Assembly (NCBI GenBank): GCA_000004985.1
Contig: GG738907.1
Source of the DNA: Naegleria gruberi
Taxonomy: Eukaryota
Strand: one strand, 5' to 3'
DNA: 64,000 nucleotides
Both the position numbers and the translations under genes were made by a program. Of this stretch, positions 3,142 through 64,000 are shown in pieces. The notes under the pieces are model-generated. The model saw only the letters and a program-made list of their open reading frames with translations. It made no database searches and was not told the DNA's origin. How positions within the stretch are numbered: position 1 is the stretch's first letter; the number at the start of each line of letters is the position of its first letter.

Positions 3142-6100
3142 TTAAACAGAAGAAACAGTTACTTTCTTTCGATGTGTCAAAAACCATAATCTCAGTCCAA
3201 ATGCTATACATGCCACAAGTCCCATACCTCCAACTATTGGAATACTAATTAAGGCAAATAAGGCATACATGCTATTATCATTGGATTGTGAACAAATATT
3301 ACTTTTACATCCATCTCCACAATAATTAGCTTGGCACTGATCACAATTTGATCCAGTCCAATAACCATCTGCAGAATTGGCTTTACACTGACATATGTTT
3401 TGTGAAATGCAAAGTCCGTGACCTCCACAAACAGCAGAATTGGTTTTTGGAATTTCAAAACATGTCCAAGAATCTGAATTGCCTGGAGTTTTTGTGGAAT
3501 TTTGTGTTGTTGATTGAGTAGTATTATTTACAAGAGTGTTATTATTACTTGTCGTGGTAGTATTTACATTATTGCCTATAAGTGTATTATTATTTACAAT
3601 TGTGTTATTTGAAGAGTTAGTATTTGTAATATTATTATTTGTTATATTGTTTACAGTAGAATTATTATTCAATGACACAGTCTCATTTGTATTCATTGTT
3701 GTATTATTCGAATTATTGACAGTAGTGTTATTTGTAATAGTATTATTTGTAACGGTAGAATTTGAATTAAGTGTTGAGTTTGAAATAGCGTCATTGCTTA
3801 ATGTTCCATTATTGTTTGGAATTGAATTATTGGTATTGGAATTATTCATCTCTAGAGTGGTAGTATTTACAATAATTGAGCAATCCAATCCCTTCCATCC
3901 AAATTGACAATCACACTTATTTACAGTTGAACAGTTTCCATTTCCGGAACACACTGAACTATCATTGGCAAAAATGTTAAAGCAAGAAGGGATGGAACAA
4001 TCGAATCCAAACCATCCATTAAAGCATTGACAAGAATCAGTTGCTGTGCAATTACCATTTCCAGAACAAACTGAGCTCTCATTGCTTACAATTCCAAAAC
4101 AAGTGGACAATTCACAATTATTTCCATAAAAACCAGGATTACAAATGCAAGTATTTGGTGAATTACAAACTCCTCTTGATGAACAAACTTTTGAAGAATT
4201 TGAAATAATTCCAAAACATTTAGAGAATTCACAAAATTGACCACCGTATAAATCTCCACAATCACAAACATCAGGTGCAAAACAAACACCCAAGCCATTA
4301 CAGACATTTGGATTGTTGGCAAAGGTTCCATTGCATGTACGAAGTGTGGATATTACTCTTAGTCGACTATTGTCAGAGTCAATTACAATTATTTCACCAT
4401 TTCGTCTTAAAATTACTCCAGATGGATTATTGATTTTTGAAGCGGAGGCAGTGGTTCCATCTTCACTGTAACCCAAATCACCAGTTCCTGTAATGGTGGT
4501 GATATTACCATTAGAGAGAACTCTTCTAATTCTATTATTGTACGAATCTGCAATCAAGAGTTCATCACCGTCAATGGCAATTCCTTGTGGATATTTGAGT
4601 TGTGCATTTGTTGCTTCGATTCCATCACCGTTATAACCTAATGTGCCTGTTCCTGCAACAGTTATAATTGTTCCATTAGTAAACATCTTTCTTATTCTAT
4701 TGTTATAAGTATCTATTTGAATTAGTTCATCAATTGAAGATTCTTATTTCACTTACCTGCAATGTACATGTTATTACTTGAATCAAATGCGATAGATTGT
4801 GGATAATTCAGCTTGGTATTGTTCGGTAAGAGATAATCACCATTAAAACCAACAGAGCCTCCAATAACTGTGGAAATATTTCCACTTGGTAATATTAGTC
4901 TAATTCTATGATTATACGTATCTGTAATATAAACAAGATCATTTGAATCAACAGTTACTGAAACTGGGGAATTGAGTTTCGCATTTGTTGCTGGAATTCC
5001 ATCGCCATTGTAGCCACCTAATCCAACTCCAGCTATAGTAAGAATTGTACCATTTGTCAAAATTTTTCTAATTCTATTATTACCAGAATCTGGTAAAGTT
5101 TCAATACAAAAAATAATGGAAGATTACTTACCTGCAATATAAATATTACCAATGGAATCAAATGCAATTCCTGTTGGTTTGTTAACTTGAGCACTTGTTG
5201 CCAAAATTCCATCTCCATTATAACCAAAAGATCCAGTACCTGCAATGGTTGTGATGGTCCCATCCAAGTACGAAATCTTTCTAACTCTGTGATTGCTTGT
5301 ATCTGTGAAAATCATTGAAACCTTAATAAATTTCACACAATCAACTGAAAACTTACCAGCAATGTAAATATTTCCCAATGAATCCAATGCAGCACCTTTA
5401 GGTTTACTCAATGCGCTCAATCTAGAATCAACATTTTCACCACAATATGATGGAGAACCTTGTCCAGCTATTGTGGTAATAAATCCATTTGAAATCTTTC
5501 TAATTCTGTGATTTCCCTTATCAGCAATATATAAATCACTTGTGTTCTTGGCAAAATTCATCAATTCAGGAGAGGCAAGAGTTGCCAAATTGACCGTAGT
5601 ATTATCAGTAAAACCATACAAACTCGTTCCTGCAAATGTTGTAATGGTTCCATTGGTAGACACCTTTCTAATTCTATTAGAATCTGAAAAATAAACTTCG
5701 CCTAATGATGAAACTGCAACTCCATAAGGTGAATTAATTTTAGCTAAGGTTGCCAGGCCTCCATCTCCATAATAATCACCTGTTCCAGTACCGGCTATGG
5801 TTACAATAGTGCCATTCAATAATACTTTACGAATTCTGTTATTATTGGTGTCAGCAATATAAATATTGTCTTTCGTATCAACAGCAACACCAAAGGAAAG
5901 AAACAAAGTTGCACTCGTAGCTTTCATGTTATCTCCATTGTAACCTGTGAAAAAGTAATAAATTAAAAAACAGTTCCGTTAAAATACATACCTTGAGAAT
6001 TGCTTCCTGCCACTGTTATAATTGTTCCATTGTTGAACACTTGGCGAATTCTATTATTGTTCACGTCGGTAAAGAGTAATTCTTCCTTGCTATTTAATGT

Positions 6101-13538: not shown

Positions 13539-16500
13539 TTATGTAAAATAATATTTATTTAATGGTAAAAAGCGATGTTTAAGCCTCTTCTTCCTTGAGG
13601 TTTGCGTAATTAATATTGTTGTAATTTTCCTTCTTTTCATCACCACTGCCCGAAGAGCCTTCTTCTTTCTTCTGTAAATAACAAAGGCTACCACTCCTAC
13701 AACAAGAATAACAATTACCACTATTAATAAGATTAATCCCAATCCAATGAGGTAGTAATAGTTGTGATTTTCTCCAATAATAACACTGTTAGAGTCTTTT
13801 GGAAGGCCTTGCTGACTTGATTCATGAGTTGGAGGAGGATTTGGTGCAATCATTTGGGATATGATGGCAACGGAAGATGTCCATGATTTTGAGGAGCAGG
13901 ATACTGAGAAGATGGTTGCTTCTCCTTGTTCTATTTGATTAAGGATGGTTGTAGTTACATTATCAGTGTTCCAGCTGTTAGAATCATAGAATGCACATGA
14001 AAGACTTGTTGCTGCCTCTTTCTGAACTGAAATGTTGTGCATGTATAAGTGGATAGGCTCTTTGAGATTTGTTATTTCAATTCTTTCTGTTGTTCCATTT
14101 TGCAATAGAATGAAATTAACTATTGGACTAACTACTTTGGAATTCTCTTGTGATTTTGATGATTCAGGAATTACAGAGGAAGCCATTGTTAGAATCGTTT
14201 GTCCTAAAGTATTATTCAAAAATACATATTCTGAAATAGTGGAAGGTAGGACCATGATGATATTTTCATACTTTTCGAAGGTGATTGTGAGATGATTGTT
14301 AATATTTTGCACTTCCACAATGTTTGTTTCTGTTTCATTTGATTTCGATTCAATATTTGAACAATAGAAAGAATCTTTCTCAGATTCTGGACACAACACA
14401 TTTTGATCACATTCAGCTCCAAAATATCCATACTTGCATTGACACTTGTCTAATGAAGAGCAGAATCCATTACCAGAACAAACACGTTCATCAGAGAATG
14501 CAATACCAAAACAGTTGAATAACTCACAAGAATCACCAAAGTAGCCACCAGAACATTCACACTTATTTGGAGATACGCAATTCCCTCTGGACGAGCAAAC
14601 TGTCTTGTTGGACATTAGAATATCAAAACATTTGAAAAGTTCACATTCATCTCCTTCATAACCCTCTAAACATTCACATTCATTATATCCAATACAATTA
14701 CCTTTTCCAGAACAAACATTATTAGCAGAAGGTATCTTTCCATAGCAAATTGTATTATCGAGGGTCAATTGAAGCATTGGATTTGGCTCTCCAGCTTTAC
14801 CAGAAATAGCAATAGAAAGTTCCACATAGCTCGATGAAAATTCTGTTATTGGAATAATTAGTGATCTGTCATGGTCTCCATTCGAAGAGTAGCTGCTGTA
14901 GTCTGGGGAGTAAATTTGTTTAGCAACACCGACATTCACATAACCTGAAACAGCCTTAATATTCAAAACGAGATAGTCAGAATATGGCCGTCCGTAATAA
15001 TTGAGGATGTTGGGCATTCCATCAGTAGATGCCTTCATCAATATAGTATCTCGTAAACGGATGAAGGCGTCATCTAAGAAGGCAGATAATTTGAATGTGG
15101 AAGCAACTAGCCCGTAAACTCCAATGTAATAGCATCCAACTTGTTGATTGCTTAACATGAGAACTTGACCGTATTGAGTTTCAGGATCCACTTTCCAATT
15201 ATAATGAGTTTCATTCGCAGGTTGGCAGTCATTAGAAACATACATGATTGTGGAGCCGGTAATATTGATCAACGCAAAGGAAAGATGTGAAGCAATGTTT
15301 TTTTTGAGATCGAATCTGAATTGATGAATCTCATTGTTAGCGACACTATCTTCCCCAGAAATTCTATTCAAAGGTAATACTCTGTAAATAATTTTCACTT
15401 TCAACTTATACGAAACAGGAGTTGAAGAACTCGTCTTGACAGCAATGTAAAGGTAACTTCCTGAAAAGAGGATTTCCTGGTTGTAAATACCATTAATTTC
15501 TTGTGGTGCACCATCTTGCCCTATTGGTTTAGGATTTTCGGTACTGTAATAAAGGTTAATGACACCAACACTTTCAATTGAAATGAGCAATTTCATTGAA
15601 CCATCCAATGGATATTGGTAAAATTGATAGAAATCCGTATTTACAATTTTAGAGGAAACAATCTGGTCATTTGATAAGAGAATTGACTTGTTTGATTGTA
15701 AAGCCATTATTGAGTAGTATGAAAGTGCTGAAAGTTCTGAATAAGTTCCTTCCACTGTAACACGAAACTCATTTGAAGTTATGAGTTTAGAGATTCCTGG
15801 AATTAGCAATGCATTTGGTGACCGTGTACTCCAATTATAATCTCTTGGAGAAGGAAAGGTATTCTTGGTATTGACATACAACTCAACGCTTCCAACTGAT
15901 GTTGAAATGAAGAACATTATATCAGTATTGTTAAGTTCCTCTTGCTTGGCTTTGAAAGTGAAGTATCCATATTTTCCATAAGGTACAACAAACAATCCAA
16001 CTCTTCTTCCATTGATCAATTCTGTTGGAGGATTTTCTGTTGAATATGTCAACGTATAAGAAGAGTCAACTTCACCAAAAACAGAAAATTTGAGATCACT
16101 TCTCTCGTTAATAATCAGTTGTCCAGGTTGACCTACTGTTCCATTAGCTGCCCTAGTGTGAACATATTGATTTGGTCTTTCACTTTCAAAGGAAAGGAAC
16201 AATTTCACACTTCCAAAAAATACAGTCAATGTAAGGCTACTTTTTAGCATATCTTTCTTGTTATGTTGGTAGTAATTCAATTGATTTGCAGCAACTGTTC
16301 CATTCACAGCAACATCCTCTTGTAAAAGCACGTATTCTGGCATTGATTTTACGGTCAAAGTTACCAATCCAATCTTGATTCCAATGTAATAAGTGCCAAC
16401 CTTTGAATCACTCATAGGAATTTGCTTTACTTTTTCTCTATTTGCCAACATGTAATAATCATAACTGTTCTCAGTTGGTTTGGTTCCATACTTGATATAA

Positions 16501-17447
16501 AAGTCTACCATCTTGGTTGTTCTCACAATAACTTCAAACCTTAAATTTTGTAATATCAAGTTATTGTAAACAAAATAGTGCAAATCTGAAGTTGGTGAAT
16601 CCTCCCTGAATGCAATACTAAGACTCTCAGATATCATTGTTGAAGTATTTGCTTGACATGAAACTATTGTAAACTTGTTGTCAACAAAATATCCATACAC
16701 TCCAATCCAGTACTCTCTTGGAGAATTTTCCTCCACTGGAATGGTAACAGAATCAGGTCCATAACTACGTGATGCATAATCATAATCTGTACTGGTTGGA
16801 AATTGAGATATTCCTGAAACATATAGATCAGAATCTCCCTCTTGAGTACCAATAGAAATATAGAGCTTTGTTGGTAGTTGACCAGTGACTTTAACTTTAA
16901 AATAGGAATAACCATTTCTCTCTACCTGACTGTATTGTGGTTGACCATCAACTAGAGTAACATGTGCTGTTTAGGTTCGTTTCCAATAGTAAAAATTTCC
17001 CATGTTTTACAACTTACCTGGACTAGTACTTCCCCACAAGTTGAAAGTAAACCTAGCAGGAGTATTACCATACACACCAATTGTGAAAATATTTCCATTA
17101 CTTGGCCATGTTCCATTCGCAGTGACAAGTAAACTTGGATACGAAAGCAAACACTTTTCACACTGTAAAGTTGGTTGACCATACGTGCTAACATACATGT
17201 AGACTTCACCACTCAACGGAGTCAATGCAAATGTAGCAACAGCACTAGAAAAAAGACTTGGATCTACATAGTAATAATGCCATCCTCCTTCTTCTACCAT
17301 ACCATTTATAGGAATACCAATTTGTTGAATGATTTCTGCTTGATTTTGAGTGGACAGTAAAATATTTAATAATAAAATGATGGTTATCAACAAGAGGGAA
17401 ACAGGAAACAGCTGTGTACGGACCACCACTGGTGGTGTGGAAACCAT
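13539..17447 (-). CDS. large type-I membrane protein of about 1285 aa with a signal peptide, a big extracellular region, three tenascin-type EGF repeats, a TM helix and a short basic tail. Two exons.
   Basis: Exon 1 is 17447..17018 (signal-peptide-like MVSTPPVVVRTQLFPVSLLLITIILLLNILL). A 52-nt intron runs 17017..16966, GTAAGT...CAG. Exon 2 is 16965..13539, in frame with the supplied ORF 13539..16736. The EGF repeats read CYGKIPSANNVCSGKGNCIGYNECECLEGYEGDECE and two more. The TM helix is YYLIGLGLILLIVVIVILVVGVVAFVIY followed by RRKKK. Confidence 0.7.
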
Positions 17448-20709: not shown

Positions 20710-22659
20710 TTATTGTTGTAAATATCTGCAGCCAACAAGATATAGTAAATAAATCAAAATCAGCTTCAATGTCAAGGCAATGACAGCTGCATTGGTTTCT
20801 GTTGAACTAGTTCTGAATCTCTTTGATGCAAAATAATCTGGATAGATCTGTTCTGTTTTAGTGAGCTTCAACAAGTCATCAATTGACCATTCTCCATTTC
20901 TATTTGGGGAATGATTCAACAAACGCAAGATGATTTCCTTTCTGCCTTCATAATCTGCAAGTTGATAAATTTCAAATAATTGTCCAGCTAATATTCTAGA
21001 AAGCAAAATGTTAAATGTTTTGTGAGGTCTTTCAATATCCTTCTTGGATAATAAACTTGCATAATTTACATTTTTAGAAATTTCCAAAGTTTCCAAATTT
21101 GGTAGTTGTTTTAAATAATTTACAAATTCGTCATTGAAAAATTGAACTGGATCTACTTCTGTCTTGTAATGAACGAGGAATAGTTTGAGGAGGAGAATAT
21201 TCTTGATAAATTCTTCTCTAGTTTCCAATGGTCGAGTGAATTTCTTATTAAAGAACTTGGCCACACGAACAGTATTGAATCCAATGTCGAAAATTGACAT
21301 TTTAGAATCAGTAGCAATGGTTTCGAACAGGAAAGGAATGACATGTTTGAAATTGGAAGATAACGTGTCCAGTTCTGTAAAATTATTGAGATTCAGCAAG
21401 ATTAATTCATGTAAACTGAAAGCTAGAGATCTAATTAGAGCTCTATACTCCAAAGAGTTCAATTTCGTGTCATTTCCATACAGTACAATCACCATGGCAG
21501 GTGTTCTTCCTTCCTTAATAGTAAACGTCTTACAGGGAAAATCTTCTGTTGAATTTTCCTTCTTTCTTCCTTTAACAATGTAAATAGTTCCGAAACTCTT
21601 CGATTTCTTATCACCTTCATGGCATTGAATTCTAACAAATGAATTTTCATTATCCTTAAAGAGTGAAAAATAGAAATTTCCCTTATTCATGGATATGAAA
21701 TCTTTAACTGCCTTATCAGTTGAAAATTTTCCATATTTTTCAATATTCAAATGAGGGAAAACCAACAGGGTTCTAATAAAACTCAATCTGTTTTGTAATT
21801 TCCAAATTGGAATACTTGATTTGAATGGAGAAAATCTTAAAACACTTTCAATGGAACGTTGAGCATGTGGCTTGACAAGTTCCATTCCAGTTTCGAATAT
21901 TTTCAAGAATTCGCTTGGCTCTTTCAACATTAGCTCTTCTCTATGAATCTTGCCTTTGATAAATTCATCTCTCAATAAATTCTCCATGTCTTGATTGAGA
22001 GAATGTGAATTTTCATAAGATTCCAATGATTTTCCATCATTTTTCCAACTTGGTTTGACATTTGGCAACTGAAATGATGGAACACTTTCATCTCCTCCAA
22101 AATATTGCTCTAACAACTCGTCCATGTATGGAACTTTCTGATTATAAACTTCATTCGAATATTTTTCAACCATTTCCAAATTTTTCTTCAATTCCAATTC
22201 AAGAATTTTCAATTTTTCCTTTTGATTTTCAATAAATTTTAATTCTTCTTCTGTTAAAATCTCATTCATCACATAAATCCATCTCTTGATTGGTAAATAA
22301 TGTGAAATTATCAAATCTTCCATTGTTGGTCGCATTTCTGCTTGTTTGTTTCGAATAGCAAGTCGTGGAATGGTTTTTAATGCATTTTCCAATGAATTTA
22401 ATTTAGTTTGAATTAAATTATGGAAGGAATCTTGCCAGAAGGGAGAATTTACATTCTTCTTGTGATGATCACTTCTTGTAATTAATTTATAAATTGTTGG
22501 AAAGGAATCGTCCAGTTTCGGAGTGGTCTTAACTTGTCTATAGAAACGATTGACAACTTTTCTGGCATAATTTCTGTAAGAATGTGTTTCGTATGAGATT
22601 AAACTTGTGCCAATTCGATGAAATTTTCCCACAGAACCCGAAACTAAAGGTTTCATCAT
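20710..22659 (-). CDS. hypothetical protein of 649 aa with a C-terminal hydrophobic segment, possibly tail-anchored
   Basis: A single long ORF with an ATG at 22659..22657. The C-terminus AAVIALTLKLILIYLLYLVGC is TM-like. I recognised no domain. Confidence 0.45.
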   Translation of the reverse strand: MMKPLVSGSVGKFHRIGTSLISYETHSYRNYARKVVNRFYRQVKTTPKLDDSFPTIYKLITRSDHHKKNVNSPFWQDSFHNLIQTKLNSLENALKTIPRLAIRNKQAEMRPTMEDLIISHYLPIKRWIYVMNEILTEEELKFIENQKEKLKILELELKKNLEMVEKYSNEVYNQKVPYMDELLEQYFGGDESVPSFQLPNVKPSWKNDGKSLESYENSHSLNQDMENLLRDEFIKGKIHREELMLKEPSEFLKIFETGMELVKPHAQRSIESVLRFSPFKSSIPIWKLQNRLSFIRTLLVFPHLNIEKYGKFSTDKAVKDFISMNKGNFYFSLFKDNENSFVRIQCHEGDKKSKSFGTIYIVKGRKKENSTEDFPCKTFTIKEGRTPAMVIVLYGNDTKLNSLEYRALIRSLAFSLHELILLNLNNFTELDTLSSNFKHVIPFLFETIATDSKMSIFDIGFNTVRVAKFFNKKFTRPLETREEFIKNILLLKLFLVHYKTEVDPVQFFNDEFVNYLKQLPNLETLEISKNVNYASLLSKKDIERPHKTFNILLSRILAGQLFEIYQLADYEGRKEIILRLLNHSPNRNGEWSIDDLLKLTKTEQIYPDYFASKRFRTSSTETNAAVIALTLKLILIYLLYLVGCRYLQQ

Positions 22660-22703
22660 TTTTTTATTTACATTTAAATATTAAATTTTGATTGAATTGT
22701 TAT

Positions 22704-23060
22704 TTACAAATTTTCTTTTTGATAAATTTCAACTTGCTTGATCATATTGAAAAGCAAATCTTCAACTTGCATGGCAGATTTTTCAATTCCATTTACAAAT
22801 TGACTATATAAGGTAAAATTAGTTTCCTTTCCACACATGCCAAGTTTCTGAACGAGTGGCATTCTGTCGAATTCTTCTATTTGTTTCCTTCTTTCTGAAT
22901 ATTTCTCAATTCTTTCATTTTCTGAATAGATAAAAAAGTATAAATACCATTCTAGGTAAAGATCCAATTTTCTACTTGACAATTCGTCAACAGATTGGTG
23001 ACCAGTATGGGAAATGAACATTCTCTCGAGGGGAATCCAATAATTTTCATAAATTTGCAA
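22704..23060 (-). other. downstream ORF that overlaps the DUF262 CDS end by 14 nt in another frame. It is either a frameshifted C-terminal continuation (pseudogene or assembly indel) or spurious.
   Basis: It starts at TTG, not ATG. No GT..AG intron can join the two frames. I see no recognisable DUF1524/HNH motif. Confidence 0.3.
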
Positions 23061-23874
23061 TTTGCTTAGTTTCGTCCAGTTTGGAAAGTAAGTGATTCTT
23101 GATTAGGTCTGAATAGGATAAGTCAATTCCAGGAGTTTTGATGTAAAAGAGAATTTGATTGGATTTTCCAACATCGTACCGTTCTCCAAAACATTCTTGT
23201 GCATTAATTTCAGATTCTTCATATTCAATAATCACAAATTTACCATTTATGGTAAGAATTGGAATAAGGCTTGATTTTACAATGGCCAAACTATTAACTT
23301 GTTGTTTTACAAGTTGTGATTTGAAGATTTTGTAAAATATTTGTCTGGTATTGTGCATATTAGAGTTTTGAAGAAGATTAGTTTGATCACCTTTGAATCC
23401 AATAAGAATTTCGATATTCGAAACTCTGTCGTCATGACTTGGGATTAATCGAGAAACATTCTTTGCAATTTCACTTGCCTTTGCATATTTATCTTCACTT
23501 GACAAGTATTCCTCTTGCAATTTCTTCAAATCAACTGACTTGACAAAGATATACGAATGAATTTCGTCTAAAATCTTTTCACTATCTACCAATTCCAAAG
23601 CAGCATCTCTCAAAGCACAAATCCCAATCAACAAGGTAGTCAATCTCTGTTGACCATCAATACAAACTCTACTTGCCAACTTCTTTTGAAAAAACAACTT
23701 TCCAATATGATGACCGAATGAAGTTCCATTGAAAACCAAATCATTGTACAATTGCTTGACAATCTTACTATTCCAGCAATATTTTCTTTGATAGATTGGA
23801 ATCTGAATCTGTGAACTCTTACCAAATGAAGGATCTTTAAATAGAGAGCTAAGTGTATGTGGTTCGATTTTCAT
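23047..23874 (-). CDS. DUF262 (ParB/Srx-like nuclease superfamily, GmrSD N-terminal type) domain protein. It appears intronless.
   Basis: The hallmark DUF262 motifs are present: IQIPIYQRKYCW (the IP.YQR.Y.W motif) and CIDGQQRLTTLLIG (the DGQQR motif). It is a continuous 275-aa ORF with no GTAAGT-type intron, unlike most neighbouring genes. Confidence 0.65.
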   Translation of the reverse strand: MKIEPHTLSSLFKDPSFGKSSQIQIPIYQRKYCWNSKIVKQLYNDLVFNGTSFGHHIGKLFFQKKLASRVCIDGQQRLTTLLIGICALRDAALELVDSEKILDEIHSYIFVKSVDLKKLQEEYLSSEDKYAKASEIAKNVSRLIPSHDDRVSNIEILIGFKGDQTNLLQNSNMHNTRQIFYKIFKSQLVKQQVNSLAIVKSSLIPILTINGKFVIIEYEESEINAQECFGERYDVGKSNQILFYIKTPGIDLSYSDLIKNHLLSKLDETKQIANL

Positions 23875-24046: not shown

Positions 24047-26497
24047 TTACATGATTGTGCATTTCCTTTTTCGTGAGGGATTTTGAAGTTTGCTTTTTCT
24101 TCTCTTCAATTCTTGTGATAGGGTGGCATCGTCCTTGGCCAATGCCTGATCAATGATTGGTAATGTTTTCACATACGTCTTGACTCGGGCTCTATACATC
24201 ATGGCTGAAATTTTCTCAAAGGAGCTTTGAATATTCTCCAGAGTGTCTGTATTAACAATGACCACATCCTTAATAAAGTACGAGTAGGTTTTCTGAACCT
24301 CCCATAAATCATTCAAGGAAATCTCGTGTAAGGTGGTATTTTTCGTGATTGTTCCCAGAATGATGGCTGCTGGAGGATCCATGGTTGTTCTTTGCTCATC
24401 CTTCTTTCTAAACTCGATACACTTTTCAATGTACTTGATCATGGCATCGAGGGAACTTCTGCTCGACATGTAGGCAACGAATATGACTCCATCAGTGCCT
24501 CTGAACTTGTATTCTGCACTATTTGGAGCGAGGGAATAGTCCATAAAACTGCACGATTCTACCTTTACTTTGAATTCTTCCTTGTTAAATTTTATACTCT
24601 TACATTCAAAGTCAGTTTTGCCTGGTAAGGTGAATTTCATGTAAATAATTCATGAATAAATATTTGAAAACTTACTCTCGAAAAATAGAGATCTAATTGT
24701 TTGCACAACAAGAAAGTTGACACCAGCAACCAACAAGTAAAAGTAATTGGATGGATCGTAAACTACATTCTTCTTTTTAGGAATGACAACCTTTTGTTGC
24801 AGAGATTGAGTATTCACATACGAGTAGAGTCTCTTGTAGGAAATGTTCAATGACTTTTTACATTCGAGATCCCTCATGTACTCTTCCAGCTTGTCAATGG
24901 TTGGAAAATTAGGATAGACATATTGCCACAGTATCATGTATTTCCAAAAACCTTCCACAATACTATTCTTGAATTGATCTTCATTTTCAGGATCAAATTC
25001 AAGAGCCGAGTGAAAACTTTTAGAAATGAGCATTAAATTAAAATAATCACGAGTAAGCTCTGCTGGGAATGGTGTATATTTCGGATAGTGGCCTATTCTT
25101 CTCATGGTTGAGCTGGAATTTCTTCTCGATATGGTAGAATTACTCGAATCTATAGGTGTTATTGAACTAGGAGAAAAGGAACCAATCATGTTAGTACCTG
25201 TTGGTGAAAAGGAAAAGTCAGCAAACAAGCTTGACGTATGGGTTGTTGTACATAGTATAAAACTGGCAATGTGTAAAATAATTTCTTGTGGACAGTCAGA
25301 AAGATTCGAATAATTCCTAATTTTTTGTCGTTTAGGTTTTTGACTAGAAAGCTGTGACAGTGTACTACTCAACCTCCTGATGAATTTTAAATTTGATGAA
25401 GGATTATTAGTCGGTGATGAAAGTACTTCATCTTGCTCCGTGAGACAAATTATTGTTGTTGGGTCAATCAGGCATGTGGCATTTGCCGTCATTTTTTCAC
25501 CATTATTTTCAAGTGTTTGGTTATTTTTATCTCCTTCCTGATCAATCTGGGAACGATTTTCCCTTCCCAAAACCTTGTCATTAATCAAACAGTTTTCTGC
25601 TGGGTTGCCTTCTTCTGTATGTCTTTCGTTTGAGGAAGAATGAAAGCTCAGTTCTTCTCTACTACTGCAACTAGTATTAGTTGTTGGTGATTCGACAAAT
25701 GGTACGACATTTGATTCATTACTGCAACAACTAATATTTGATAAGCTGTGATTCGTATTGTGGACTCCTGAAACAGATGAGGAAAATGACTTGAATGAGG
25801 ATAAAGTATTAGTGGTTGAATGTTTCTTCTTGTTAGGTGTTATTAGAGAGCCATCTACTGTTAGAAATTGAGTGTTAGAAGGACTCTTATTTAGTGGTGG
25901 AGAATGGTAATGTTTCTTTGCCATCTTGGATTCTTTAGATTTACGTAAGAGTCTTGTGAGAATGTTATTTCCCTTAATGGTCAAACTTTGACCATTAGTT
26001 AGTAGTGAAGGTTGAGTAGTATTTGATGTTATTGAGATGGTTGGAATGGCAGTGTTAGTGAGGGCAATAGAAGGAGGACATGCTTGATTATTCTTATTAT
26101 TCGAAACGAGGGTCTCTGAGCGAGAGAATGAATCTCTAGATTTCTGAGAAACTTTAGGTAATGGATTCGAGCTGGATCTTCCTCTTGTCTTACTTTCATC
26201 TGGAGCAAAACTTGGACTAGCCATTGAATCTGTCTCATGAATAGAACATCTCTTCAAATTTGCTGATTGACTAGCCAATAAATCATTCCTCTCCTGAATA
26301 CCAACATCATGCTTTGAAACTTGATTTAAATTTCTACTAAATATTGAAAGAGAGCTAACGACACCATTAATACTATTTGATGAAATATCCAATCTTGAAA
26401 AGGATAAATTTGAGCCTTGATTTCTCTTACGACGTTGTTTCGTATAAGATGGAGCCAATTGAGCAGTTGAAAGTAGTACTACTTGATGAGAGGGCAT
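24047..26497 (-). CDS. F-box protein of about 800 aa with a C-terminal Ras-like domain that has no P-loop, ending in a polybasic stretch and a CaaX box. Two exons.
   Basis: Exon 1 is 26497..24676 and exon 2 is 24621..24047. The 54-nt intron runs 24675..24622, GTAAGT...CAG. It joins the supplied ORFs 24650..26497 and 24047..24640 in frame, and the track's M at 24640 lies inside the intron. The F-box-like motif is LSDCPQEIILHIASFIL. The C-terminal domain has a Ras-fold-like pattern (YLLVAG, TDGVIFVAY, ILGTITK) but no GxxxxGK[ST]. The tail reads KRRKSKLQNPSRKRKCTIM, polybasic plus CaaX. Confidence 0.6.
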
Positions 26498-34439: not shown

Positions 34440-34523
34440 CTTGTTTTTTTTTTTGATTGATGGGAGAATTCTCATGACAGTTTTATTGAATACAAATATT
34501 TGTTGTGATGACTGACAGGAAGT

Positions 34524-35729
34524 TTACAGGTTGGATCTTCTCTTGTTGTGCTCTCTCAAGCAAAACTCAATGGTTTCCCTTCCAATATTAATTTCTCCGC
34601 AATGAGCTTGTTCAAATCCTTCACAACCTGGCGATGAATTAATTTCACAAATTTTGTAAACATTTTCATGATCGAGTAAAATGTCAACTCCTGAAATATC
34701 CAAATGACATTCCTTTGTGGTCAACCGTGCCAATCTTTCTAGCTCTTCATTCATTGGAAATTTTTCACACAAAGCTCCTTGATGAAAATTTGCTTTGAAA
34801 TTTCCATTCGTTGATTTTCTCATCATTGAGCCAACTACCATATCTCCCATTACAATAATTCGTAAATCCTTTCCACTCGAATTGGAAATAAACTCTTGCA
34901 ATATCCAATTATTTGAGGTTGAAATTATTTCATTTAAATCTTGAAGTTGATTTCTGTCCTTAATTAGAATAATTCCCTTTCCTTGACTTCCATTCGTCTT
35001 TTTCAAAACCTTTGGATAGCCACCTAGTTTCTGCTCAATCCATTCGAATCTAGTGAGTGGAAATGTTGCAGCAATTGTTTTTGGAATGGAAATTCTCTTT
35101 CGTGCTAGAGTTTGCATTGTAACAAGTTTATCCTTTGAAATTTCCATTCCTTTTGAAGAATTCAAAACCAAACACTGTTCGAAACTTTCCAAAAATCGTA
35201 AAAGAGCCATTTCACAATACGTAATTTTAGCTCCACATCTATTAATGATGACATTTGGCAATTCCACTATTTTCCCATCATATTCCACTTGATTTTGCAA
35301 CAAGTCAGTTTCTGAATCAGCACACACTGAAAACAATCCAGTTACCTTACTCGAAACCAACACACCAGCTCTCCATCCTTCCTCAATAATCCTTCGTCGA
35401 GTATAATTCAATTCCTGATTGGTTGAAATAATCCAAACTCTCAATTTTGCTTTTTTATATCCAAAACCTTTAATCATTTGCAAGCCGTGCTCTTCCGAGT
35501 TGTACAATGTATCATCCTGTGCATTCAAATAAATAATCATCTTGGAATGGGATGAAGAGGATGAAGAGGAAATATATTTTGGTTTTAATTGAAATGATAA
35601 AGCATATTCAGGAATTGTAATTTCTCTTGAGGATGACAATTCCGATGCAGATGATGATGATGATGAGGTGTAGATCTCTTTCGTCATTGGTTCTGCCTTA
35701 ATTGTTACTAATTTTCCATTGGTTAGCAA
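34524..35729 (-). CDS. RimK-type ATP-grasp ligase (RIMKL/alpha-L-glutamate-ligase-like)
   Basis: The ATP-grasp motifs are NRCGAKITYCE, GGYPKVLKKTNGSQGKGIILIKD, DLRIIVMGDMVVGSMMRK..NFKANFHQG and the catalytic loop LDISGVDILLD...YKICEINSSPG. Confidence 0.7.
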   Translation of the reverse strand: MLTNGKLVTIKAEPMTKEIYTSSSSSSASELSSSREITIPEYALSFQLKPKYISSSSSSSHSKMIIYLNAQDDTLYNSEEHGLQMIKGFGYKKAKLRVWIISTNQELNYTRRRIIEEGWRAGVLVSSKVTGLFSVCADSETDLLQNQVEYDGKIVELPNVIINRCGAKITYCEMALLRFLESFEQCLVLNSSKGMEISKDKLVTMQTLARKRISIPKTIAATFPLTRFEWIEQKLGGYPKVLKKTNGSQGKGIILIKDRNQLQDLNEIISTSNNWILQEFISNSSGKDLRIIVMGDMVVGSMMRKSTNGNFKANFHQGALCEKFPMNEELERLARLTTKECHLDISGVDILLDHENVYKICEINSSPGCEGFEQAHCGEINIGRETIEFCLREHNKRRSNL

Positions 35730-39460: not shown

Positions 39461-42400
39461 ATGCCACCAAAATATGTCATTCAACAGCAAAAATTGAAAC
39501 AACAGGCAGTGTCTAATCAATCACCACAAGCAAATTCTAATGGTTTATTTGTTCAACTGGGTGTGTTACCACAAACCAATCCACAACCACAACCAACTTT
39601 AGTTGATTTACCTCCTCTTGTTGTTCCCACCAACAGTATCATTACTCCGTCCACACCAAATGATCAATCATCTACACCACTGTCAGCTGTTTCAACATCA
39701 TCCATAAGTTTGCAAGCATCATCAACACCAACTAGTTCATCACCTCCTGCAGCCAAACCAGCAACAAAGAACGAAACTAAAAAACCAAAAGAGAAAGACA
39801 AGAAAGAAAAGGACAAGAAGGAAAAAAAAGAAACGAAGGATAAGAAAGAAAAGAAAGAAAAGAAGGAAAAGAAAGAAAAAAAGGAGAAGGAAGAGAAGGA
39901 CAAGAAGAGAAAAAAGGTTCCAGAAAAGTCTTCTGAAAAAAGTAAAAAGAAGAAATCCGATGCTTCTACTCCAACAATCAACACAACATCAATTACCAGT
40001 AGTAGTGCAACTCCAACAGTACCATCTCCACAAAAGGTTGTAAAAGATGTTGAAATGACAGATGTCTTAACAAAGGAAGAAGTGATCAAAGCAGTGTTTG
40101 AAAATATTCCAAAACAAGTTATTGTTAAAATATCATGCTTGGATTCTAATGAGTTCCAAATTGATGAAGATATTGTATTAAGTGAAGAGGGAATTCCAAT
40201 TGTTAACGGTATCAAATTGTTTCAATCAATTGATTGGAACAATTCATTAGAAGATCATGAATCTTTCTTTAATTTCAACTGCTCACTTGTTCTTTCAACT
40301 ATTGCCAGCGAAAGTTCAATAACAGTTCAAGAGTTTATTTATTCTATTGATGAGGCACTCAAATTGAATCAACAGTATTGTAAGGATTTGATGCGTTCTA
40401 TGAATATTTCACACGAAAACTATTCCTTTGTGTACGATTTGCAAACCAACTCAATGAGCTTGATTTTCAAGAGAGAAACAGAAATAGTGGAACTTGCTGA
40501 AATGCTCTACGAAATCAAGACTATTAGAGAACTGAAGGAGGCTGAAGAAATGGAAGCCGAGGAGCAAATTATTACAGAGGGACCAATAGATGAAATTCAA
40601 GTCAATTTTGAGTTTAATTTTGAAAAGGAGGAGAAAAAGTATGTATTGGAGCTTCGTGCACCAAAGGCAAAATCGTACAAAACCATTGTCTCATCCCATC
40701 TCCAAATTGCTGAAAGTGATATTTTGAATTATGGTGAAATAGCTAGCGAAACACTGGTTGAAGCTAATGGTGTATTACCAACAAAACTGAAGGACGTTCT
40801 AGCTAGCAGAGTTGATGTAAAGGTAGTGCATCGTCATGTCTATTATGAGCAGAGAGTAATTTCATATGAAATATTCGAAAGAATGAAGGATATTATTGGA
40901 CAGACTGAGTTTTCATTATATAATCATCTCTGCTTTCTAGTTTGTACGCCTGATCAGAATACCTTATGGCATCAGACAATGGAAAGATTGGAAAGATCCA
41001 ACATTCTGCCACCAAATACCAAACTTTCACATGTCTCAATCAAGTATAGAAAAGATCACGTCCAGATGTTCGAAAAATTCAGAGACAGAATTGCAAATGA
41101 AAAAGAAACTCTCTTCATTATAATTGTAGACGAGTGTCACTATGCAATTACCAAAGAAGGTGCTCACGACAAGATTGTTAATGATGAGCTCGCTCTTCAA
41201 CACAATAACTTTTTCATTCTATTGGTGAGCGCAACCCCTTACAATGTCCTCTCAGTTGATAGTAATATTCCAGAAGTGTACAAACTCTTGAACAAACATG
41301 AAGATTTGGAAGTTGGTACAAAAATTCAAGTCACTTCCACGAATTATAACAAGATAGGATTTGGTGTATTGATCAAATATGAGGAGCAATATTCTACTCC
41401 TGTGTATGAGCTAATTGAATCCAAGGATCAAAATATATTTTTGGAGGATGTAGAAGAAATAACTGGTAAGATTATACCACTCATGAGTGATGAATCTGAA
41501 GAGAAAAACTTTGAAATTGGAGAAGTTGTGGAATATGAAGAAGTTCCTGACACAAATCCTCAACCAACTTCTAAGAAATCAATCTCAACAGTCAGGTACA
41601 TAGTCAAATCCCTAACAAGAAACTTGGAAATGGAAGTAAACCTCTCAGATAGAGATTTACGAAAGATTAATACTTCAAAAACTAGAAGAATTACAAATCA
41701 AGCAATTGGCAATATTCCAAAGGGAAAACTTGTTGAAATACATGATATAATCAAGTGGAGTGTAACTTTCAAACCAGTGAATAATGATCCAGCAGTATCC
41801 AAAGAATACACCCTCAATGATTGGCAATTCAAACACCTTACCAATTACGAGGAGTACAATGTTGTGAGTTGGAGTGAAGTACAAAAGCGTACAACCTTGG
41901 AAAGAACAGAGCAAGATAATCAAACGAAGAAATACTTCAGCAAACAGGATTACATTAATTCTCTCAAGCAAGAAGAACCACTTGTTTTCAAAGATTTAGA
42001 ATTTGAAAGAGTTCTGAAAAAGATCAAGGTTGCATCCAATACTTTAAGACCAATCATGTTAGCTATTGACTATCACTTTTGGATTATTACTGAAGGATTG
42101 AGAAGAAAACTATATGATGAAGTTACTGCTTACAGACATTTTAATTCCATTGATGCTGCTCTTGATATTGAACCAAAGCACAAAATATACGTAGAGATTT
42201 GTAAATTAATTTATCTAGCTTACTTGTGTGCTAAACATTTGAAGATGGATGATGTTTTGGAGAATCAAGAATTTGATGACGAGGACGATGACTATGATAT
42301 CCTTGATGAAACTAAAAAGACCGTAAAGAAAAAGAAGGAAGATTTGGAAAAGAAAATTCAACATTTACTGGAATATTTGAAAAATAAGTTCAAGCCAAAG

Positions 42401-45291
42401 AATCCTGAAAGATTATTTTCAGTTTTAATCGATCAAGAATCCCACACCAAAACTCTCATTAATACCTTGATAGAATCTGGTAAAATTCCAAATGATAACA
42501 GTGTGACGTTGAGAGGGAAAATGAAAATATTGAGAATTACAACTACAGATTTTGCCAACACTGTTTTCAAGCTATTGAGAAGTTCCATTTCCAAAGTAGC
42601 AGCAAGTGGCTACATTTCACCAGATATTCTCATAGACACTGGTGAAAATCCACTCACTCTCGATCAATTATCTTTCATCTCAAGAATGAAACTTGCTGAA
42701 AAAGTTCTGTCCACAGAAGATTATGAAGTTTTCCAAAGAAAACCAAGTAGACTTTCTAAGGAGAAAAAATCTTTGGAATACATTAATTTACACAATTTCC
42801 CTTGCATTCTAATCCTAGTTGCCAAAGGTCGTCAGGGAGATACCTTCCCTAATTCATTTGATTGCTTGGATATGAGAGCCAAAGGTGATTCCTTGCCAAA
42901 TTACTCATCTTTTACACAAGAATTTGGTCGTTTGTGTAGATATGTGGACGATTCTGACAAGAAACCTATTGCACTTGTAACAGATTCAATTTATAAGGAT
43001 TTATCCAAGTGCGGTGAAGGTGGAGCTACAATAGTAGGTAACACGAGCATGAAGCTTGATACCTACATGACCAAGATGAAAGGAAAGGAAGGTCAAAAGT
43101 ATTGGTCCATTGTTACATTCTGTAGAAGAACCATGACTGCAGTTGATGGAAAAAAGCTTAAAGGTGAAAAGAAAAGTCCTCCTTCCTATGATTCAATGAG
43201 ATCAGGTTCTGATAAGGATATCTCCTCAAAGAAAAATCACAAGAATCGTATGTTACTATTCGCCGAACCACAAGTAAGTATATTTATAGTATTTGTGAAT
43301 ATTAATAACAATGAAATCAGATTGGTAAAACAGACGCCTTTATTCACTGTTTGGAAAGAGTAATTCATGACATTGAGAAAAATAGAAGTGAGCGTATGGT
43401 TGATATTAATGAAGAAGAACAACCATACGATGATAATTCTATTGGTGTTGATGCTGTTATTTCTAACTATTCTGAATTGGAACGTGTATTACCTTACTTT
43501 GAAAATTTACAAGGTCAACAAAGGGGTGAATACAGCTCAATTTCTGCTGGAAAGTATGCCAAGCTTGTTTTGAAAACCAGAGAGGAAATATTCACTGAAT
43601 TTACACCTGATAAGATCAGGTCTGTACACAAATTATCAAGAATTGAATCTTTCATGACAAGTTCCAATCATTATTGGAGCAAGTTTATGGAAAAATTGAG
43701 TAGCCACAACTTTGATTTGGAAACATTCCAGACATTTGATGGAAGATACAATGATATTTTACATCCTTCATCTGGATATAGAACGCTGAAGTTTGGAGAA
43801 TCAAGTTCTACATCATCCTCGAAAGAAATTATTGAGAAAGTTGACTTATCCGAAAAGATGAATATTGGTCTTGCAGATATGAATTATAAGGATAAATTAA
43901 TTACCATCCAATTGCAAAAGGTATTTGGATTGAAGATGGCCATGCTAGAGTCTTGCTTTCCAGGAGAAAAGCCATTAATTTCCATTCCATCAAGCAAAAT
44001 GAATTGGTTTGTAATTTCATCAGATCAACAACATGTCACCAGATTCCTACTGCCTGATGATCCTAATGGTGTTAGAAGTTGGATATTTGTCCCTTCTTGG
44101 AATAGAAGTGCCTCAGGTTTATTCTATCTGAAAAGTATGAAGGTTCCATATAGACAAGTAATTGTTGTAAGACATTCCGAATTCAAGTGCTATAGAAATG
44201 TTTTGGGAGGAGATTTTGTGATTATGAGCTTACCAGATATTGTGAATATGAAAGATCTTTTCAAACTATTCCCAATCCCAACAACTGAACAAAGAAAGTT
44301 ACAGTACAATGAAATAGTGGATGGAAAAACTCTTATTGATTATGAAATGAAGGACGATGTTGGAGGAATTGGCTACTCTAGAATGGTCATTCAAATTCTT
44401 TCCTATGCATTTGGTTTGGAATTTATTTGGATGATGGATGATAATTGCCATCACTTTGAGAAGGTTGAAAATGGTAGAAAGGTTCCTTGCTCATTGGCAG
44501 AAGTTTTAATTCCACTCGAGAAAATTGTCTATGATGAAAACAAACCAATTTCAACTATTACTCAGTCAATTCAACCAATATTTAAAAATAGACAAAATCC
44601 ATCTCTGAATATCACTCTTAATGATAGTATAAGCAGTTTTACTCCTGGAAAGGATAAAATTGCCATGATTGGAGTTAGAAAGGATGGATACAGATATTCT
44701 TCATCGATCAACTACAAACCATTTGTAAACAGTTTCACCATTTGTTCTCTCTTCCTTTTGAATACAAAAAGAACAATTGATTCTGGTTGTATATTCCCAT
44801 CAAGAAGATATTTAGAAGACATTGAATTTGAATATTTATGTTTGGAAAGAGGCTTATATTGTGTGAAATCACAAAACTATTTCCTTCATAAACCTGCGAA
44901 TCCGTTGAGAATAGATTATGTTTTACCAGTTCCAACCATGTATGAAATTGAAGAGGAAATTTTTAATACCATTTCAAACTCAATTTCCACCTCTCAAGCC
45001 AACGAACCTTCAAATGAATTCTTAGCAATCAAAGATTTGATCAAGAATTCAAATCCTCAAGCAATCATATTTGATGATTCTAGGAGTTTCATCATGCAAG
45101 CATCTTCAATCTTTTTGACAGCTCCCACTTTTGAAATGTTCACCTTTTTTCAAACAAACGACATTAGAGAAAATCTCAGATCCATCTTGAGCTTCCTTCC
45201 TTTTGCCAAATCGCAAACCTCTGTGTTTTATTATTCCCCAAGTTCTGATGAATCATCAACCAAAGAATTGATACTAAAGTTTGTGAAATAG
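39461..45291 (+). CDS. very large protein of about 1930 aa: a K/E-rich N-terminal repeat region, a central SF2-helicase/ResIII-like core with motifs II to VI but no recognisable Walker A, and a long C-terminal region. Two exons.
   Basis: Exon 1 is 39461..43273, with a GTAAGT donor at 43274. The 47-nt intron ends in TCAG at 43320. Exon 2 is 43321..45291, in frame with the supplied ORF 43351..45291, whose M is a TTG. Motif II is LFIIIVDECHYAI (DECH). Motif III is FILLVSATPYN (SAT). Motifs V and VI are ILILVAKGRQGDTFPN and TQEFGRLCRY (QxxGRxxR). The region upstream of DECH (..HLCFLVCTPDQNTLW..) has no GxGK[ST]. The 39790..39910 stretch is a (GAA/AAG) repeat encoding KEKKEK. Confidence 0.6.
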
Positions 45292-50757: not shown

Positions 50758-50830
50758 GCCCGTCTAGCTCAGTCGGTAGAGCGCAAGGCTCTTAACCTTG
50801 TGGTCGTGGGTTCGACCCCCACGGTGGGCG
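50758..50830 (+). tRNA. tRNA-Lys(CTT): tRNA-Lys (anticodon CTT)
   Basis: GCCCGTCTAGCTCAGTCGGTAGAGCGCAAGGCTCTTAACCTTGTGGTCGTGGGTTCGACCCCCACGGTGGGCG is 73 nt. The acceptor stem has 7 bp (two G-U pairs). The D-arm is TAGCTCAGTCGGTAGAGC. The anticodon stem CAAGG/CCTTG closes the loop CTCTTAA, giving anticodon CTT. The T-arm is GGGTTCGACCCCC. It closely matches eukaryotic cytosolic tRNA-Lys. Confidence 0.9.
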
Positions 50831-61899: not shown

Positions 61900-63300
61900 A
61901 TGAGTGAGTTGGAGTATAATCTATGACATCATGCCAAATTTCTATAGTAAATTGATAGAGTTGATATCTCACTATCTACTGAACCAATATTCATGAAATT
62001 GATACCATATGTTAATTAGAGTATCTACATATCATGATATCAATTTCAGTGAAAATGGAGTTGTTTCTGTACCTTTCAGATTTCCATCCATTCTCTTGAA
62101 ATATCACCATGTACTATCTACTGAATGCATTTCTTGAAATGAAATTATATAATTTGATGAAAGTCCACTTTATTTGAGATGTAGAACACGATATTATCAT
62201 TTATTTTGAGATTGGTAATTCTTCCTATAGTATCATCCTTATTATCTTAATTGACTAAAAGAGGTCAAGGAGATATTTCAAAACATAAAATAAATTATAT
62301 TTTCGAGATGTACTATCGATTTCCAATCGATTGATATGTATTTTGTTGATTGAGGATTTGGTTCTCTATATTCAAGATTTCCTACTGCTTCCAAGTCAAC
62401 CTTGATATTTCACCCTTTACCTTACTGAAAGATGGAATGTTCACCAAAACGTCTGAAATTTGAATCATATACAGTATTTGAGATGTTGAACATAATGGTA
62501 ATGTTTCATAGAGTGGTCATTTTCCAGATTTTCATGCATGTCCATAGTTGACTAGTTGGTATGATAGAGTTGAAATCATGAACATGAAAGTGAAAATAAA
62601 CTTAATATTCTATCTCCACTCATCGAATGGAGCATTTTCATGTATATTTTGTTGATTGAAGTGATGTATTTGATAGAGTTGGTCTGACTTGTCTTTTCTT
62701 AAAGTCAACCATAATATATCAACATTTACCTTCCCATGGTACCATTTCTGATTTTTATGATATGAAATTGAATTCTACATCATTATATATCATCTAAATC
62801 ATGTTGGTAAAGTTTTAATAGGTGGTCTTTTTTCAAGATTTCATCCTTTTCATCATAGTTGACTATGTGTGGTTGAGGGAAGAAATCTTTAAATATGAAA
62901 GTGAAAATAAATTTGATATTCGATGTTTACTCATCAAATGGAACATTTTCATATCAGGATTCAATATGTTTTGATGAGAAACTCAAAAGTTATTGTTGAC
63001 CTATTTTACCTCACATCTTCCCTTTTCTCTCTATACTTTTATATCTACAGACATGAAATTTTGAAATTTTATATGAAAGTGATTATGAATGTTGTTAACG
63101 ATGATATAGACTATATAATCTCATTAAAGGATTTTGAAATTAACATTCTTCCTATAGTTTCATTTTAGAAATTTTAATCTGACATTATTTACAAAGTTAA
63201 TATTTTATAAATTGAAAAACTAAATATACCACGTTATTCTACTCATCATTTCCAATCGAATGATATATAATTTAATGATATTTGAATAAGTTTATAATTT
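61900..63300. repeat. degenerate tandem subtelomeric satellite with a unit of about 310 bp, at least four copies
   Basis: Motifs recur with a 306-314-nt period. atgaaagtgaaaataaa appears at 62584 and 62896. catagttgact appears at 62543 and 62857. tcatcgaatggagcattttcat at 62620 recurs as tcatcaaatggaacattttcat at 62931. tttccaatcgattgatatgta at 62319 recurs at 63250. The gagatg-containing motif recurs around 60990, 61295, 61570, 61741, 62170 and 62475. The region has no coding capacity. Confidence 0.55.
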
Positions 63301-63358
63301 TGGGCTAGGGTTTGAAGGTTGGGTTTAGAAGAATTCTATTTTTAGGTTGGGTTTGGTT
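63301..63358 (+). repeat. degenerate telomere-like relic (GGGTTT/TAGGGTTT variants) proximal to the terminal array
   Basis: The sequence is tgggctagggtttgaaggttgggtttagaag...ttaggttgggtttggtt. A similar relic at 60189..60245 reads ggttgacccagggttttggttggtttgggtttggttaggatt. Confidence 0.5.
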
Positions 63359-63610
63359 ATCGTTTCGTACTCATTGGATCTTCATTATTATTGAAATACA
63401 TAATCAATGATATACATCATTAAATAGGTTACAATCTCAGCTATCCAGTGGGCTATAGATTGTGTATAGTTTCTTATCTAATTATTGAGATAATCAGCAA
63501 TTCCTCCCTCAATATATTGCGATTTTACTATTCCTAGGGAAAGGTAAAAGAATGATCAGAAATTGATCAATAAAAAATATATGTCATACTAGAGATGATT
63601 TGCTATCGAT

Positions 63611-64000
63611 TGGTGTGGGTTTGGGTTTGGGTTTGGGTTTGGGTTTGGGTTTGGGTTTGGGTTTGGGTTTGGGTTTGGGTTTGGGTTTGGGTTTGGGTTT
63701 GGGTTTGGGTTTGGGTTTGGGTTTGGGTTTGGGTTTGGGTTTGGGTTTGGGTTTGGGTTTGGGTTTGGGTTTGGGTTTGGGTTTGGGTTTGGGTTTGGGT
63801 TTGGGTTTGGGTTTGGGTTTGGGTTTGGGTGGGTTTGGGTTTGGGTTTGGGTTTGGGTTTGGGTTTGGGTTTGGGTTTGGGTTTGGGTTTGGGTTTGGGT
63901 TTGGGTTTGGGTTGGGTTTGGGTTTGGGTTTGGGTTTGGGTTTGGGTTTGGGTTTGGGTTTGGGTTTGGGTTTGGGCTCTGGGTTTGGGTTTGGGTTTGG
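63611..64000 (+). repeat. terminal telomeric array (GGGTTT)n, equivalent to (TTTGGG)n, of about 63 units. It runs to the window end.
   Basis: Near-perfect hexamer repeats start at tggtgtgggtttggg (63611). The G-rich strand is written 5'->3' toward the window end, as expected for a right-hand chromosome terminus. Rare variants occur: gggtgggttt at about 63829, gggttgggttt at about 63908 and gggctctgggttt at about 63975. Confidence 0.9.

Follow-up and report, generated by a model that had tools for sequence, protein, structure and literature searches.

In DndI and SspE, the closest described systems to the gene studied here, the arginine of a DGQQR motif is needed for the hydrolysis of nucleoside triphosphates (NTP), a tyrosine in an N-terminal motif senses DNA modification, and hydrolysis alters the binding of DNA (PMC11662687, PMC10952713). 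For DndI, the substitution R87A abolishes ATPase activity, and Y25 lies in a modification-sensing hydrophobic patch (PMC11662687). The bacterial defence systems Menshen, Dazbog and PD-T4-2 contain DUF262 proteins without a DUF1524 domain, which are presumed to act as NTPase or sensor and to regulate a separate effector (PMC10952713). As for eukaryotes, Machnicka et al. 2015 list GmrSD homologues in three genomes, for example that of Thalassiosira oceanica (PMC4619093). Here we analyse a DUF262 gene of Naegleria gruberi that lies on the minus strand of a stretch of 64,000 nucleotides (nt) of contig GG738907.1 (assembly GCA_000004985.1), the whole of which we call the window. The gene has its ATG at 23874 and its TAA at 22706..22704, and is listed as two open reading frames (ORFs), ORF1 and ORF2, in different frames. 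We found it to be a normal resident gene, belonging to a eukaryotic branch of DUF262 proteins that lacks a nuclease and has drawn little notice.

Our best explanation, held with middling confidence, is that this is one intronless N. gruberi DUF262-only gene of eukaryote-type ancestry, with a slight lean towards a real and very young frameshift, in which case the laboratory strain would carry either a pseudogene or a single null haplotype.

The DUF262 gene and its frame break

ORF1 matches the Pfam family PF03235 (GmrSD_N, formerly DUF262) at 77.3 bits, with a cut-off of 33.2 (E 2.3e-21), and the match covers positions 7-199 of the 199 in the profile. The motifs IPIYQRKYCW and CIDGQQR fall in columns that are invariant in two alignments of the family, A1 and A3, the latter comprising 57 family members, and the longer run CIDGQQRLTTL corresponds to ORF1 residues 71-81. 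The domain has the ParB/sulfiredoxin-like fold, and Foldseek agrees with this assignment. An earlier note, made from the letters of the window alone, had named the gene a DUF262 family member, and both the profile search and the two motifs confirm this identity. The same note had likened the product to a GmrSD-type restriction enzyme, a proposal that we abandon: the DUF1524/HNH domain (PF07510) gave no match in ORF1, ORF2, either flanking gene or any eukaryotic relative. With this nuclease half absent, and with flanking genes that differ between species, we rejected the assignment to the GmrSD-type type IV restriction enzymes, including BrxU, SspE and DndI. ORF2 alone has no Pfam match. The protein is a DUF262 (GmrSD_N, ParB/sulfiredoxin-fold) NTP-binding domain joined to a helical C-terminal domain, without a nuclease.

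ORF1 is 100% identical to a deposited 275-amino-acid (aa) "predicted protein" of N. gruberi (P0001). The codons of ORF2 begin one base downstream of those of ORF1, that is in the +1 frame, and the first ATG of ORF2 comes only at Met14 of the listed frame. Once one base is removed, the merged product of 389 aa aligns over 98% of its length with the N. fowleri orthologue (P0003, 472 aa) and with a protein from a Joint Genome Institute (JGI) metagenome (P0002, 444 aa), over 93% with the N. lovaniensis orthologue (P0004) and over 75% with that of Willaertia magna (P0005), at 32-34% identity to each of the four. Furthermore, the ORF2 frame translated by itself from stop to stop matches all four orthologous genes in their 3′ part (L001-L004, E 1e-8 to 1e-12), and in three of the four loci (L001, L002 and L004) this match starts 7-10 nt after the ORF1 match ends. 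Two residues encoded in ORF2, W279 and E283, are invariant in alignment A1, and in A3 they are nearly so (at least 90%). In the confident AlphaFold2 model of the repaired protein (mean predicted local distance difference test score, pLDDT, 85.6; predicted template modelling score, pTM, 0.86), the helices encoded by ORF2 are part of the same body. Collectively, these sequence comparisons indicate that ORF1 and ORF2 are one gene, the tail being its frame-shifted continuation, and the frame break that the earlier note had seen at the tail stands.

The position of the extra base was narrowed by a deletion scan, in which each base was removed in turn and the products were scored with a hidden Markov model (HMM) of eight relatives. 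A single ORF of 389 aa results from the loss of any one base at 23049-23105, and deletions at 23054-23063 score best, with 251-253 bits compared with 219.8 for ORF1 alone. The repaired junction, KQ-xxx-YENYW, equals the N. fowleri sequence KQFEMYEKYW in length. On these scores the extra base most probably lies at 23054-23063, an interval within which the scan does not pinpoint the exact base. It shifts the final ~114 codons to the +1 frame, and translation would stop after 275 residues. Both frames are open across 23050-23102, and the 14-nt overlap to which the earlier note had drawn attention is therefore the product of an arbitrary first TTG, although the change of frame and the lack of a splice signal that it described are as stated.

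The ORF2 frame is open for 131 codons, which has a chance probability of 1.6e-5 at the local composition. Because the downstream frame is intact over this length, the frame change is either very young or artefactual, and both options that had been offered at the outset, recently disabled or mis-assembled, remain live. In either case, mutation or error, the deposited 275-aa N. gruberi model is truncated.

Origin of the extra base and of the gene

It is quite possible that the extra base is an error of base calling or assembly, that the organism carries an intact ORF of 389 codons and that only the public model is wrong. The long open frame just described, in which the YW.P.E motif is kept, speaks for such an error, as does purifying selection on the family: the ratio of nonsynonymous to synonymous substitution rates (dN/dS) between the N. 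fowleri and N. lovaniensis orthologues is 0.20, and we conclude from this value that the DUF262 family is under constraint. The site itself holds short A and T runs together with the near-duplicate GCAAATT/GCAAATTT, and indel artefacts mimic frameshifts in the assembly of the sister species N. lovaniensis. However, the A and T runs at the site are only 3 bases long, and the N. gruberi reference, which we take to be a Sanger assembly, presumably has a low indel rate. Apart from a junction at 34523, no second ORF break lacking a canonical intron was seen in the 64-kb window, and hence nothing points to frequent indel errors in this region. A second N. gruberi copy was also sought, and the metagenome scan gave only a 25%-identical relative, with no Logan-derived copy among the protein search matches.

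The N. lovaniensis orthologue (L002 10001-11372, PYSW02000021.1) carries two 1-nt deletions relative to N. fowleri, and the deposited protein P0004 (388 aa) bypasses them by means of a false intron that skips conserved coding sequence. Frame changes against N. fowleri recur in the same 21-kb locus, in the HSP20, Glyco_transf_61 and GATA genes and in a gene of 470 aa; among the intronless genes there, about half are frame-broken in this comparison. Because these neighbouring intronless genes change frame as well, we regard the N. lovaniensis assembly as indel-prone. The idea of a gene that decays repeatedly in Naegleria, which the N. lovaniensis indels had raised, was dropped on the strength of this locus control. 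With the N. gruberi model truncated at 275 aa and the N. lovaniensis model hiding two indels, both deposited entries should be corrected or flagged.

Another way to a full-length protein would be a programmed +1 shift of the ribosome, as in antizyme or prfB, which we consider very improbable. The shift required is indeed +1, and slippage at the UUA-UGA stop would yield a protein of suitable length (...KQIANLENYW...). However, the orthologues in N. fowleri, in Willaertia and on the L004 metagenome contig, as well as a related Symbiodinium gene, are plain single ORFs, and so the frameshift is not conserved. With the shift placed at the stop codon, a conserved Tyr is also replaced and the score is 240.5 compared with 252.8 bits, and the site is without a known slippery motif. 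We therefore did not place the gene among programmed +1 frameshift genes, for which a conserved shift and a recognisable slippery/stop site would be expected.

As for ancestry, a heterolobosean profile retrieves PF03235-only proteins ahead of any two-domain bacterial protein. A cluster look-up of this PF03235-only set returned several Symbiodinium species, Paramoeba, a metagenome-assembled genome of a diatom and MMETSP transcripts, and a protein search added Dysnectes. We built neighbour-joining trees on 247 alignment columns, in which 16 eukaryote-type sequences plus one Logan protein are split from 50 bacterial homologues (295/300 bootstraps). The same eukaryote-type group is split from 82 prokaryotic and viral sequences, a set enlarged with the top matches among 185,579 prokaryotic species genomes and in IMG/VR, in 194 of 200 bootstraps, and the four heterolobosean sequences group together in 197 of 200. 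A QRxYCW signature is found in the eukaryote-type clade; its CW is also present in a few cyanobacterial proteins and is thus not exclusive. Judged by these trees, the gene belongs to a eukaryote-type DUF262-only clade, a grouping proposed here, together with the Dysnectes, Paramoeba, Symbiodinium and diatom proteins.

The earlier note had instead considered the gene to be horizontally acquired and the most foreign-looking in the window. Under this explanation a bacterium or a virus would recently have supplied a GmrSD-type restriction gene that is now decaying close to the telomere, which our results render highly unlikely. It is true that the DUF262 family is overwhelmingly prokaryotic, that the gene is intronless, that giant viruses of amoebae carry DUF262 proteins and that synteny between N. 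gruberi and N. fowleri is absent around the gene. Nevertheless, orthologues are present in three other heterolobosean genomes, and the eukaryote-type clade stands apart from prokaryotic and viral sequences in the trees above. No prokaryotic or viral relative exceeds about 30% identity: the best prokaryotic identities among the 185,579 species genomes are 23-30%, and full-length IMG/VR matches reach 23-27%. When a viral source was sought, IMG/VR and BFVD gave distant matches only. The composition is native-like, with a GC content of 0.31-0.32 and a GC content at third codon positions (GC3) of 0.29, compared with 0.35 +/- 0.02 and 0.30 +/- 0.05 for the other window ORFs. Furthermore, no remnant of DUF1524 follows the gene, the ATG of the next gene lying 44 nt past its TAA. 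With a eukaryote-type clade, a native composition and potential donors only 23-30% identical, recent horizontal transfer is not supported, and vertical orthologues in related eukaryotes take the place of the foreign source that had been proposed.

The absence of an intron had likewise been read as an anomaly. The gene is indeed intronless, but so are its downstream neighbour and the orthologues in N. fowleri, in Willaertia and on the L004 contig, the Symbiodinium member of the clade and, the false model intron aside, the N. lovaniensis orthologue. Because the orthologues and the Symbiodinium member also read without an intron, the lack of one characterises the family and does not point to a recent acquisition. 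Intron-bearing vertical orthologues had been named beforehand as evidence that would speak against acquisition; the orthologues exist in related eukaryotes, but they carry no introns. Synteny is uninformative on vertical descent, as the N. fowleri, N. lovaniensis and Willaertia loci match no window ORF outside the DUF262 gene; the N. fowleri and N. lovaniensis loci are mutually syntenic. An ancient transfer from bacteria to a eukaryote, perhaps with later spread, is possible. The case warns against inferring horizontal transfer only from the identity of a domain.

Scarcely credible, finally, are two independent genes, as the two listed ORFs might suggest, or a very short, non-standard intron where the ORFs meet: ORF2 has no ATG of its own before Met14 and its homology carries on the sequence of the orthologues without a gap, and fewer than 20 nt separate the last conserved ORF1 residue from the first conserved ORF2 residue, whereas window introns measure 46-77 nt. 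A spliceosomal intron at the ORF junction is rejected, as there is no room for one and GT does not occur on the minus strand between 23105 and 23049.

Several points weigh against our preferred reading of a resident gene with a real, very young frameshift. The data fit mutation and base-calling error alike, with P0001 the sole N. gruberi protein returned by the search, and a downstream frame that has not decayed is equally expected under sequencing error. The broken N. lovaniensis orthologue cannot serve as a precedent for genuine decay. The trees are neighbour-joining and not maximum-likelihood trees, on 247 columns. As to function, the biochemical mechanism given below is drawn entirely by analogy, and the orthologues carry Phe, not Tyr, at the sensing position.

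Surroundings of the gene in the window

The window ends in a telomere-like array, (TTTGGG)x65, at 63612-64000, which is 39.7 kb from the DUF262 gene. Degenerate TTTGGG copies occur around 63300-63360, and from about 59 kb outwards GC content is low (0.29) and long ORFs are absent. The other window ORFs encode RasGEF, RCC1/Kelch, EGF/NHL and GREB1-like helicase-glycosyltransferase proteins, which fits a protist nuclear genome. Introns in the window start with GTAAGT or GTATGT and end in AG. That almost every neighbour has several of them, as had been claimed, is overstated: other window genes do have introns, but the downstream neighbour is a single ORF of 649 aa and the upstream neighbour has one intron of 54 nt. 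The protein of this upstream neighbour has no Pfam match and ends in a CaaX-like CTIM. We also noted that two same-strand spacers from stop to ATG are only 44 nt (22659-22704) and 48 nt (34475-34524) long, both on the minus strand; alternatively, these may be weak GTAAAT/GTAAAC introns that fuse the ORFs. The split of the GREB1-like gene into two frames was considered as a second frameshift and rejected, owing to a canonical intron of 47 nt at 43274-43320. Coordinates of the gene, its parts and other features are collected in Table 1.

Table 1. Coordinates of the DUF262 gene, its parts and other features of the window
Feature	Position	Strand	Description
Whole gene	22704..23874	-	Single intronless DUF262 gene with one extra base, as indicated by sequence comparison; repaired product 389 aa
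ORF1	23047..23874	-	275 codons + TGA (23049..23047); complete PF03235 domain
ORF2 as listed	22704..23060	-	118 aa; TTG start at 23060, TAA end
+1-frame open stretch	22704..23102	-	Stop-to-stop 23102..22707 + TAA; YxxYWxPxE and C-terminal helical domain
YxxYWxPxE motif, conserved	23051..23028	-	Encoded in the ORF2 frame
IPIYQRKYCW motif	23773..23802	-	ORF1 residues 25-34
DGQQR motif	23644..23658	-	ORF1 residues 73-77; NTP-binding/hydrolysis signature of DUF262
Likeliest site of the extra base	23054..23063	-	...AAG CAA ATT GCA AAT TTA TGA...; permissive interval 23049-23105
Upstream neighbour	24047-26497	-	Two same-frame ORFs (615 and 197 aa) split by a 54-nt GTAAGT..CAG intron, 24675..24622, containing TGA
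GREB1-like gene	39461-45291	+	Circularly permuted SF2 helicase (PF20692, E 1.9e-130), then TET-associated glycosyltransferase (PF20691, E 2.6e-10)
Two teneurin-like proteins with EGF and NHL repeats	3142-4686 and 13539-16736	-	PF07974, PF23106, PF01436
tRNA-Lys(CTT)	50758-50830		

Function and comparison with described DUF262 systems

In the HMM alignment to DndI (9jfl_B), Tyr28 of the Naegleria protein aligns with DndI Tyr25, and its DGQQR corresponds to D83-R87, with the arginine kept as R77. On the model of DndI and SspE, the intact protein may bind and hydrolyse NTP in its DGQQR pocket, while the aromatic patch that includes Tyr28 would contact DNA. Nucleotide turnover would then switch either DNA binding or the interaction with a partner, and the protein itself would not cut DNA.

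A more far-reaching idea, which we regard as a long shot, is that nuclease-less eukaryote-type DUF262 proteins form an undescribed eukaryotic family whose members, driven by NTP, read hypermodified bases in DNA, namely 5-hydroxymethylcytosine (5hmC), 5-hydroxymethyluracil (5hmU) or their glycosylated forms, and were co-opted from the sensor half of a type IV restriction enzyme. A few circumstantial hints may be listed here. Naegleria has TET/JBP enzymes, and dinoflagellates are rich in 5hmU. The GREB1-like gene, with its helicase and TET-associated glycosyltransferase, lies 16 kb from the DUF262 gene. The Willaertia orthologue (L003 4424-11746, JBEGDK010000070.1) is arranged head-to-head with a gene for a FAN1-like VRR_NUC nuclease and adjoins a SAD/SRA-domain gene; this arrangement is known from one genome and may be coincidence. 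If the eukaryote-type branch does read modified DNA, it would be another prokaryotic defence module reused in eukaryotic chromatin biology.

Among known proteins, the DUF262 proteins of giant viruses (Harvfovirus, Yasminevirus, Catovirus and relatives) share the fold of the Naegleria protein, with a Foldseek E value of 1.9e-8 for Harvfovirus, and have amoebal hosts. However, they are only 10-19% identical to it, the top three (E <= 0.001) are longer at 759-847 aa, and there is no evidence for them as a source. Our literature search found no paper describing Naegleria or eukaryote-type DUF262 proteins. Eukaryotic members of the DUF262 family, to which the Naegleria protein belongs, were already recorded by Machnicka et al. 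2015, but the searched text of that study neither describes the nuclease-less eukaryote-type clade nor mentions Naegleria (PMC4619093).

In their domain content, the Menshen, Dazbog and PD-T4-2 components resemble the Naegleria protein, each having a DUF262 domain without DUF1524. Sequence similarity to the models of these systems is negligible, the only match being that of P0002 to NsnA (E 0.0099), and they further differ in that neither Naegleria nor Willaertia has a conserved adjacent effector gene. SspE (PDB 6JIV/7DRR) and the type IV enzymes GmrSD and BrxU are linked to the Naegleria protein by its matches to the PADLOC models SspE, Orf5 and HEC-06. These matches cover only the N-terminal half of models of ~550-770 aa, and the nuclease half that defines restriction is missing.

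DndI of Salmonella (PDB 9JFL), the effector of the phosphorothioate-sensing IscS-DndBCDE-DndI defence, is a protein of 596 aa that has a C-terminal DUF1524/HNH nickase and works with the dnd modification genes, whereas the Naegleria protein ends after its helical region and has neither an HNH domain nor a dnd context. Common to both are the N-terminal DUF262 domain, the DGQQR motif and an aromatic residue at the position of Tyr25. Taken together, what looks like a bacterial gene is part of a patchy eukaryotic DUF262 branch that lost, or never had, the nuclease half.
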